64,000 nucleotides of DNA from Escherichia phage S127 BCL3: the sequence record OQ626344. One strand, written 5' to 3'. The translations under genes and the position numbers were made by a program. Positions within the stretch are counted from its first letter, which is position 1. Each line of letters starts with the position of its first letter. Below the pieces are notes generated by a model. That model saw nothing but the letters and a program-made list of their open reading frames with translations. It made no database searches and was not told where the DNA came from. This document shows, piece after piece, positions 12,271 to 13,610 of this stretch.

Positions 12271-12541
12271 CGGGCAATTTAACATAATACCCATTATGCG
12301 CACCACTGGCGATACATACAGGGATTGATAACATGGGTTACTGTTTACGCATATAACAATTATATTTCTTACTATTTGTGTGGGATATAGTTAGCAACCA
12401 ATAGATTAGATATTGACCTGCGGACTTCTGACCGTCCAGACGTCTAAACGCCCACACAGCAAGGATTATACATACATTTCTGAATGTAAACAAGGCCGCA
12501 AAAATGCTACCATACCAGTTTGTAAATTTTTCATGCAGCAC

Positions 12542-12625
12542 TTGACAAAGAGGAGAAAAACTTGTCTGACACAATGTGACAAAATTACCACTTTTGACAC
12601 TTTTACCTTTGACGCAATATGACAC
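12542..12625 (+). repeat. cluster of six TGAC(A/G)(C/A) hexamers
   Basis: Copies at 12542 (within TTGACA), 12567, 12577, 12595, 12610 and 12620. Confidence 0.7.
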
Positions 12626-12706
12626 AATAACGGCTGTTACTATTCCATATCTCACTGTTTACGCATAGGCTGTTTACGCCTGAACAGTTTACACAGAGAT
12701 GATAAG

Positions 12707-12999
12707 CCATGCCATTCGTTTGCATGAAAACAATTAACAAGCTAACAATTAACAAGTTAATAATCTTTCGCTGGCTATGCCAGGTGACTAGGTCACCCCT
12801 TCGGGCGTTTCTATGACATAATATAAAAGCAGGGCAACTATTAGAAGATCTATAGTTGCCTTGCTTGTTATGTCATGATTAACTAAATACAAGGCAACTA
12901 TGATCTGAGTAATAGATTGCAGAAAAACTATCACGGGGGTGATGGTTACTGCTTTTATATTATGTCGCGACTCCGTCGCGCCATGCCATTCGTTTGCAT
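12707..12999 (+). repeat. 19-bp perfect direct repeat CCATGCCATTCGTTTGCAT flanking a palindrome-rich segment
   Basis: Copies at 12707-12725 and 12981-12999. Confidence 0.85.
12815..12966. repeat. 18-bp perfect inverted repeat GACATAATATAAAAGCAG / CTGCTTTTATATTATGTC
   Basis: Arms at 12815-12832 and 12949-12966. Confidence 0.85.
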
Positions 13000-13006
13000 A
13001 GTTGCC
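12833..13006. repeat. GGCAACTAT 9-mer, four copies in alternating orientation
   Basis: Copies at 12833-12841 (+), 12852-12860 (-), 12893-12901 (+) and 12998-13006 (-). Confidence 0.8.
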
Positions 13007-13056
13007 TTATTGTTACAGGTAAAACAATTACATTATTAATTATTTCTTATCTTTCT

Positions 13057-13117
13057 CTTAGTCATCTAATGATTCCAGTCAGTATAGTAATGTACAGTAA
13101 ACATTAGACGACTAAAG
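13057..13117. repeat. imperfect 15-bp inverted repeat
   Basis: CTTAGTCATCTAATG (13057-13071) against CATTAGACGACTAAAG (13102-13117): one mismatch and one indel. Confidence 0.7.
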
Positions 13118-13172
13118 ATTTCTCTGTTTATGATAACTCATCGTGATAATTTCGGACTGTTTACGAAAAATG

Positions 13173-13201
13173 TTGACACCTGAGCTGATTTATGTTATGC
13201 A
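13173..13201 (+). promoter_or_regulatory. sigma70-type promoter inside the non-coding island
   Basis: TTGACA-17-TATGCA. It points toward the 3' end of the leftward operon, with no convincing ORF downstream. Confidence 0.5.
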
Positions 13202-13610
13202 GTTTACACGAATAATTATTTTATGCAGGTATTGACTATTCCGTTATTCTGTGGTTGGAATAAATACTTTGCAGACTATAGAATGGCGTTCGTACGTGAA
13301 TTCTGAGATCTGTCGGCTATAGTTATACTCGATTTTTCGCGTAGAACACGCTTTCGATGCTGTGTAAGTGTATGACTTATAAAGATTTTTAGTTGTTGAC
13401 AAGATATTGGAGATATGCATCAGGTTAAAATTTGTGCAATAGCTGCATTACGTGCACTTTTGGGAGAGAAAACGGGTAAAAATGGACTTGCTACCACACA
13501 ATGAAAAATTATGCAATAGTTATTTTCCATGTATATTTGTACAGTATGTGGGATTGATAGCTAGTCAATTATTCCACTTGCCAGGTAGGGCCGTTTATGG
13601 TAGGAGAAGA

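Follow-up and report, generated by a model that had tools for sequence, protein, structure and literature searches.

The closest described counterparts of the repeat array reported here lie at the genome ends of phages T7 and T5. The T7 sequence, which we checked, has a 160-bp terminal repeat with three copies of the word CCTAAAG (17-66). About 12 CCTAAAG units follow at 175-345, starting 15 bp past the repeat and recurring every 13 bp with variable spacers. After them lies the non-genic promoter phiOL (405), and a looser CCTAAAG set is found on the other flank. These arrays are reportedly the SRL and SRR of Dunn & Studier 1983. In T5, Repeat Region 3 holds nine 15-bp 'D' repeats in the same orientation, TGTGC(A/G)AATCCGACA, straddling the inner end of the terminal repeat, and the repeat-rich untranslated region at that end has been proposed in silico as an injection-stop signal. 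We analyzed 64,000 nucleotides (the window, to which coordinates refer unless stated otherwise) of Escherichia phage S127 BCL3 (OQ626344), a Vequintavirus, i.e., an rV5-like E. coli myophage, and found a phased array of the word CTGTTTAC just past the inner end of the terminal repeat as mapped in relatives. Since T7 and T5 share this layout, the rV5-like array represents a third, independent instance of a known, unexplained kind.

The array lies in a stretch free of credible genes (here called the box). Plus-strand genes stop at 11102 and minus-strand genes at 13662, so that two transcription units converge on it. In the rV5 genome paper, this 2.5-kb region is a grey box labelled "non-coding", with no promoter listed within it and only the terminator of the minus-strand block. 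The coding potential of the box is limited to short open reading frames (ORFs), none with conserved annotation; no Rfam family was found in it at a relaxed threshold, nor across the whole 64-kb window, and a tRNA search gave no hits. The 2.6 kb around the repeats matches 121 phage records at 90 to 98% identity, nearly all of them Vequintavirus. We compared 17 genomes (the window and 16 relatives) and also extracted the box from one more divergent metagenomic contig. A protein-anchored search of IMG/VR yielded 3 loci only. In a three-unit pattern scan of the same database, the 8 of 50 matches inspected were unrelated tandem repeats, some of them perfect, in various viral contigs, and many other matching contigs were giant-virus metagenome-assembled genomes; no informative relative was found this way. 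In the literature searched, the arrays are not described for rV5-like phages, and neither a transcriptome nor an origin map was found.

A repeat word with a conserved phase

Exact matches to C[TA]GTTTAC[GA] were found at 12341, 12655, 12670, 12685, 13157 and 13200, all on the plus strand. Two further matches, at 39969 and 46179, bring the count in the window to 8; shuffling gives an expectation of 2.3, and none of 100 shuffled sequences reached the observed count. When the window was joined to the other 70.5 kb of the genome of ECP32, its closest relative, to give a near-complete genome of 134.5 kb, CWGTTTACR occurred nine times. Six of these sites fall within 868 bp (scan-statistic P of ~6e-9), and there is no other cluster. 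The word is clustered, not scattered, which agrees with the original prediction of a local set of iteron-like repeats, and the 15-bp spacing it gave for a tandem triplet proved to be exact. Its list of sites had to be shortened to the six exact matches. The copy at 13124-13132 (plus strand; CTGTTTATG) is off-pattern and unconserved and probably not part of the system, and the supposed inverted copy at 13093-13105 comes down to AATGTTTACTG on the minus strand, an 8/11 match, although it does lie in a fully invariant block. The copy set apart as an outlier, CTGTTTACC at 11598-11606 (plus strand), is mismatched at its last position, yet it lies within an island conserved in 16 of the 17 genomes, with variable sequence immediately to its left.

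The motif was then refined from the relatives. Forty-six distinct units from the 17 genomes gave the 11-bp consensus A-Y-W-G-T-T-Y-A-C-R-Y, in which four flanking positions that had not been used in unit selection are almost invariant, while the 4- to 5-bp spacers between units carry ~0 bits. A conserved core combined with information-free spacers is the signature of a selected binding site and not of recent slippage. When phase was measured with TGTTTAC, allowing at most one mismatch, 57 of 57 successive-unit spacings were 15 or 16 bp, or multiples of 15 to 16 where a degenerate unit intervenes, and this phase was kept in at least six different array architectures. Unit number, read by phase, varies from ~2 to ~9 across the relatives. 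Spacing is thus conserved as the original prediction had expected, but copy number is not.

Every close relative carries two adjacent arrays between two fixed anchors, ...ACTTGTC on one side and the 20-nt repeat GCCATGCCATTCGTTTGCAT on the other. The first array consists of TGACAY units (roughly 2 to 7, often 10 to 11 bp apart) and the second of TGTT(T/C)AC units. Between many phages that are otherwise ~90% identical, this segment fails to align in blastn. Overall, the repeats look like a protein-binding array, and iteron-like is a fair description of them.

Several known motifs were tried against the word and rejected. T4-type early promoters are said to have GTTTAC at -35, but no -10-like hexamer lies 16 to 18 bp downstream of any copy and the promoter scan found none. 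A LexA box could be sought in the CTGT...ACAG that spans units 2 and 3 of the triplet; it has 10 intervening bases, while 8 are required. OmpR, CpxR, ArcA, PhoB and TyrR reportedly require a 10- to 11-bp period or dyad symmetry, and the repeats here show neither.

Position relative to genome ends mapped in relatives

Several GenBank records start in the box at the same base. For phage Gotham, 459-bp terminal repeats and a fixed packaging start have been reported, and the annotated 459-bp repeat (MT682716) maps to 12108-12566 of the window. YN3 (PV763136), from another laboratory, has an exact 458-bp sequence as both prefix and suffix, with the same boundaries as Gotham. In Klebsiella phage KPP-1 (Mydovirus), a T7-type repeat of 514 bp, identified by doubled coverage and PhageTerm, has its boundaries at homologous sequence, and so does the 328-bp repeat of Mt1B1_P17 (Phapecoctavirus). 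The plus-strand segment at 12108-12566 is therefore taken as the homologue of the 458/459-bp direct terminal repeat (DTR). With a slash marking the cut, its left boundary reads ...GTGCTGCCA/GGCGGACGG, and its right boundary ...TTGACAAAGAGGAGAAAAACTTGTC/TGACAC, given also as ...AAAAACTTGTC/TGACAC, with the cut at ...CTTGTC/TGACAC.

A single full-consensus site, ACTGTTTACGC at 12340-12350 (plus strand), lies inside the DTR and hence at both virion ends. Its GTTTAC is invariant in the 17 genomes, and only the degenerate W and R positions vary. At the homologous place in the repeat, the divergent IMG/VR contig 3300045988_159287 (IMGVR_a) has two units 16 bp apart, and KPP-1 carries three related ones at distances of ~15 and 14 bp. 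The DTR also holds a reverse copy (12484-12494, minus strand), which is degenerate in S127 BCL3 (CTTGTTTACAT) and reads CCTGTTTACAT in 15 of the 17 genomes. Beyond the right boundary, array A (12567-12625, plus strand; five TGAC(A/G)(C/A) units) begins at the first base and extends 0 to 58 bp from the cut, so that the TGACAY array sits between the right cut and the CTGTTTAC array. The latter, array B, is the triplet ACTGTTTACGC, GCTGTTTACGC and ACAGTTTACAC at 12654-12694 (plus strand), with exact 15-bp spacing, at +88 to +128 bp. Measured from the left end as mapped in relatives, array B lies at 548 to 587 bp and the in-repeat copy at 233 bp.

Two distal sites follow ~590 to 630 bp beyond the right cut. 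At 13156-13178 (plus strand), ACTGTTTACGA is joined to TTGACA; the CTGTTTACGAAAAATGTTGACA block at 13157 is invariant in 16 of the 17 genomes (CCGTTTAC in the remaining one) and has variable flanks. The site at 13199-13209 (plus strand; GCAGTTTACAC) overlaps the putative -10/start region of the TTGACA element and is somewhat less constrained, the C of TAC varying in 3 of the 17 genomes.

On the other flank of the DTR, a second set of the word is absent. The weak 11598 copy, ~510 bp left of the terminal repeat, is the only one there, and the flank carries other motifs, CCTGAAGAG four times (11465, 11880, 11915 and 11998) and GGAGTGCTGCC twice. Copies of CCTGAAG(A/T)G were also seen in the boxes of IMGVR_a and KPP-1. 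Two hypervariable, indel-rich zones, 12050-12107 and 12567-12800, coincide exactly with the two outer flanks of the terminal repeat; outside them, conservation of the box exceeds that of the flanking genes. The most conserved DNA of the region is 11400-11549 (94 to 98% invariant per 50-bp bin in the 17 genomes), and 12850-12999 is 82 to 98% invariant. Within 12050-12107, relatives have insertions of 33 to 51 bp that duplicate CCTACAGGAG(T/C)GCTGCC, and the last copy invariably stops one base short of the left cut (GCTGCCA/GGCGGAC). The boundary sequences on this left flank are recognizably conserved in Mydovirus and Phapecoctavirus.

To the right of the arrays, the 20-nt direct repeat GCCATGCCATTCGTTTGCAT at 12706-12725, the fixed right anchor of the variable arrays, recurs as an exact copy at 12980-12999 (both plus strand). 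The two copies bracket an AT-rich stretch and a nested inverted-repeat module. The AT-rich AACAATTAACAAG occurs twice at 12729-12764 (plus strand), directly after the first 20-nt repeat and with the same 15-bp spacing as the CTGTTTAC array; from its sequence, it is a candidate for an easily melted stretch. The module (12812-12966) has perfect 18-nt arms at 12815-12832 and 12949-12966 and a hairpin with a GGGGG loop, and four copies of GGCAACTAT lie in or near it, the fourth, inverted, just outside at 12998-13006. Its folding on either strand is much stronger than that of shuffled sequence (z = -9 and -10). IMGVR_a, IMGVR_c/Mt1B1_P17 and KPP-1 have the same architecture, built from other arm sequences. 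Since the long-range arms match perfectly in each of four lineages despite their different sequences, it is the structure that is conserved (compensatory change) and not the sequence. Two G.T wobbles in the module, present on the plus strand only, are a hint of a plus-strand RNA or single-stranded DNA structure. Further AT-rich DNA extends from ~12950 to 13400 (33 to 35% GC at 12950-13399). No DnaA boxes were found in the box of the window. IMGVR_a has three perfect ones (TTATCCACA) within 40 bp (locus L005, 6853-6892, minus strand), and they lie in the segment homologous to the terminal repeat.

Compared to T7, the locus shares a short exact terminal repeat (as mapped in relatives) with the word inside it, a same-orientation array just past the inner boundary, and a conserved core with variable spacers. 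It differs in the word (AYWGTTYACRY versus CCTAAAG), in the period (15 to 16 versus 13 bp), in the TGACAY array interposed between cut and array, and in having one weak copy (11598) and other motifs where T7 has its looser set; moreover, podovirus T7 and the large myovirus studied here are unrelated. With T5, it shares a large non-coding region that is more conserved than the neighboring genes and straddles the inner repeat boundary, copies of a single word in one orientation on both sides of that boundary, and large inverted repeats and palindromes. DnaA boxes occur in the T5 terminal untranslated region and, in the rV5-like case, in the relative IMGVR_a. Unlike the units described here, the T5 'D' copies are irregularly spaced (25 to 140 bp and more), and the T5 repeat is 10 kb long and contains genes.

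Possible roles of the array

Because the array abuts the inner DTR boundary, a role at the genome ends or at the concatemer junction suggests itself, with replication initiation as the main alternative. The reading we prefer, to which we assign a probability of about 0.4, is that a phased protein-binding array labels the concatemer junction so that ends can be formed there and the DNA packaged. The CTGTTTAC repeats would then be binding sites (AYWGTTYACRY) for one sequence-specific protein, probably phage-encoded. In replicating concatemers, the array would adjoin the right-hand cut site of the junction, and the protein would polymerize on the phased sites into a nucleoprotein complex that marks the junction for terminase cutting and for duplication of the terminal repeat before packaging. 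The conserved positions held by the in-repeat copy and the 13157 copy are consistent with such a role, as are the binding-site signature, the constant phase, the single cluster in the genome, the comparable layout in T7 and T5, and the coincidence of the hypervariable zones with the outer flanks of the repeat. Terminase sites such as lambda cosB R, SPP1 pacL/pacR and the P1 pac hexamers likewise have short repeated words within ~100 bp of the end-generating cut, and arrays A and B both place repeated elements within ~150 bp of it. In those systems, however, the number of repeated words is stable and the site is usually found within or next to the small terminase gene, whereas here the number is variable and the large terminase gene (TerL) is far away.

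Several observations weigh against end processing. KPP-1 and Mt1B1_P17 share the repeat boundaries and have no recognizable phased array at the right flank, so that across the wider group the array is not indispensable for cutting there. Copy number varies ~four-fold between phages that are ~90% identical, and known cos and pac sites are not usually so variable in number. The distal sites at 13157 and 13200, beside TTGACA and AT-rich DNA, seem a better fit to a role in transcription or at an origin. The position of the DTR is taken from ends mapped in relatives and not in S127 BCL3 itself, and the T7 and T5 arrays to which it is compared have no proven function themselves; the left array of T7 was reportedly not singled out as essential in the plasmid-packaging assays of Chung & Hinkle 1990. 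No binding protein was found either. None of the ten flanking ORFs has a Pfam match above cut-off, and 9 of the 10, which encode small proteins, match PHROGs of unknown function. The remaining one (9264-9569), ~3 kb from the sites, has a weak GapR-like match and a generic 'transcriptional regulator' PHROG match. In ECP32, TerL lies ~45 kb away, and no small terminase subunit is annotated beside it.

The main rival, replication initiation, does not exclude packaging. In T7, phiOL and phiOR beside the terminal repeat act as secondary origins, and the promoters there have been associated with concatemer processing as well as with replication. At an origin, the repeats would be iterons for a phage initiator or a host factor that opens the AT-rich DNA or the module, or that controls a priming transcript from the TTGACA at 13173. 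The order of elements speaks for this, phased repeats being followed by the AT-rich 15-bp x2 stretch, the strongly structured module and the stretch of 33 to 35% GC, and so do the two sites flanking an invariant TTGACA, the three perfect DnaA boxes in the repeat-homologous segment of IMGVR_a, and a box whose size and conservation go well beyond what a cut site requires. In addition, a skew change noted by the rV5 authors (104425-105475 in their coordinates) falls in or beside the box. Those authors, who sought an origin by skew, ascribed the skew changes to transcription direction, and with transcription units converging on the box the GC-skew signal is indeed confounded by transcription. Like the iterons of lambda ori, P1 oriR, R6K, pSC101 and P4, the copies share one orientation, have AT-rich DNA nearby and occupy a unique location in the genome. 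Classical iterons, however, are sets of three or more 17- to 22-bp direct repeats, ~21 to 22 bp apart (whole helical turns), in or beside an initiator gene. Here, the core is 11 bp and the period 15 to 16 bp (~1.5 turns versus ~2), no initiator gene is adjacent among the ten flanking ORFs, the box of this window lacks DnaA boxes, and unit number is very unstable. The P4 type I iteron octamer TGTTCACC resembles the TGTTCAC variants of relatives; no homologue of P4 alpha was seen, although no search was aimed at one. On this evidence, an origin is possible but doubtful. What stands of the term iteron-like in the original prediction is the shared orientation, the phase, the conserved core with random spacers, the uniqueness in the genome and the persistence in relatives; the two functions that it named, initiator and repressor binding, are not well supported in that form. 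As for repressor sites, the word might be the operator of a regulator acting on promoters in the box, e.g., one for a non-coding RNA starting near 13205, with the triplet as a reservoir or cooperative extension. The pattern around 13173 is promoter-like, in that the sites at 13156 and 13199 bracket a perfect, invariant TTGACA with a variable spacer and conserved sequence downstream, and a protein with a weak transcription-regulator PHROG match is encoded 3 kb away. The promoter that the original prediction placed between the two sites is nevertheless questionable beyond its -35, since the best -10 (17 bp away) is TATGCA, with no T at position 6, and neither the promoter scan nor the rV5 authors called it. 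No gene follows the TTGACA element, as the next genes converge on the box, no Rfam family was detected there, and the scan placed no promoter-like site over the triplet or the in-repeat copy. Together with the asymmetry of the 11-bp site, which lacks dyad symmetry, this makes operators improbable.

A role during DNA entry, to which we also give little credence, would have a host or virion protein bind the array as DNA enters, pausing ejection or holding or protecting the end. The array does lie within ~600 bp of the left virion end as mapped in relatives, each end carries ~1.5 kb of gene-free DNA, and the T5 region at the inner repeat end is a proposed stop signal. The T5 model, however, is in silico only and is tied to a two-step transfer that is unreported for rV5-like phages in the literature searched, and the in-repeat copy, being at both ends, confers no polarity. 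Finally, the repeats could be a neutral by-product, a minisatellite generated by slippage or recombination at a recombination-prone junction and devoid of sequence-specific function. The array does fall within one of the hypervariable zones on either side of the terminal repeat, and its unit number changes rapidly. A core conserved between randomized spacers is, however, the opposite of what recent duplication leaves, the phase persists from one architecture to another, single copies outside the array are conserved in place, and other genera have related words at the corresponding position in the repeat. We therefore regard a neutral origin as very improbable.

Other features of the box and a wider view of the genome ends

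The terminal repeat also carries a Fur-box-like palindrome, AATGRGAAT-N3-TMTCATT, for which 10 strand-matches (6 sites) were found compared to 0.28 expected. Three sites are in the terminal repeat (12117-12135, 12233-12251 and 12251-12269), and three are in another non-coding stretch (24193-24211, 24329-24347 and 24358-24376). The terminal regions of KPP-1 and Mt1B1_P17 have versions nearer the Fur 7-1-7 consensus, e.g., AATGAGAATAATTATCATT. Host Fur or a phage regulator could bind the genome ends at these sites. The second gene-free stretch (24050-24680) contains two tandem units, in each of which a promoter-like element precedes GGGAGACAAYCACCGGGG and a single Fur-like box. These units are possibly two small RNA genes; they have no Rfam match.

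At the left side of the box, just past the last plus-strand gene, the segment 11243-11305 has a near-consensus promoter-like site (TTGACA-16-TAAAAT with TG), followed after 20 bp by a small terminator-like hairpin and by no ORF. Farther downstream of that gene, the plus strand of 11600-12050 is strongly C-rich and G-poor (GC skew of ~ -0.5), and it is mirrored by a G-rich plus strand at 13100-13700. The two skewed stretches look like Rho-utilization-type sequence on both incoming transcripts, in which case the terminal repeat would be insulated from transcription. On the right side, the gene at 13662-14081 (minus strand) encodes a 139-amino-acid protein of unknown function (phrog_12277) that is ~90% identical in Phapecoctavirus, a different subfamily. 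There, too, it adjoins the terminal non-coding region, so that gene and region appear to travel together.

A broader version of the end-processing reading, which we consider unlikely, is that the array is one module of a composite 'terminal organizer' common to rV5-like phages, comprising the conserved cut sites, the Fur-box-like palindromes in the repeat, the two phased arrays and the structure-conserved inverted-repeat module. A dedicated phage protein polymerizing at 1.5-turn spacing would then form a directional roadblock or ruler that tells a translocating terminase or replisome where the terminal repeat ends, so that its duplication is linked with packaging. The T7 and T5 arrays, which have been recorded beside terminal repeats for decades without a function, would in that case be explained in the same way. 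Phages with short exact terminal repeats have to find the concatemer junction, cleave it at two fixed points and make a second copy of the repeat, a process that is poorly understood outside T7/T3. That unrelated, widely isolated coliphages, which are candidates for therapy, share the layout, and that ~120 natural variants of them differ in unit number, provides a comparative and genetic handle on this process. In practical terms, the locus indicates where Vequintavirus genomes should be opened for annotation and which non-coding DNA should be spared when they are engineered or rebooted.

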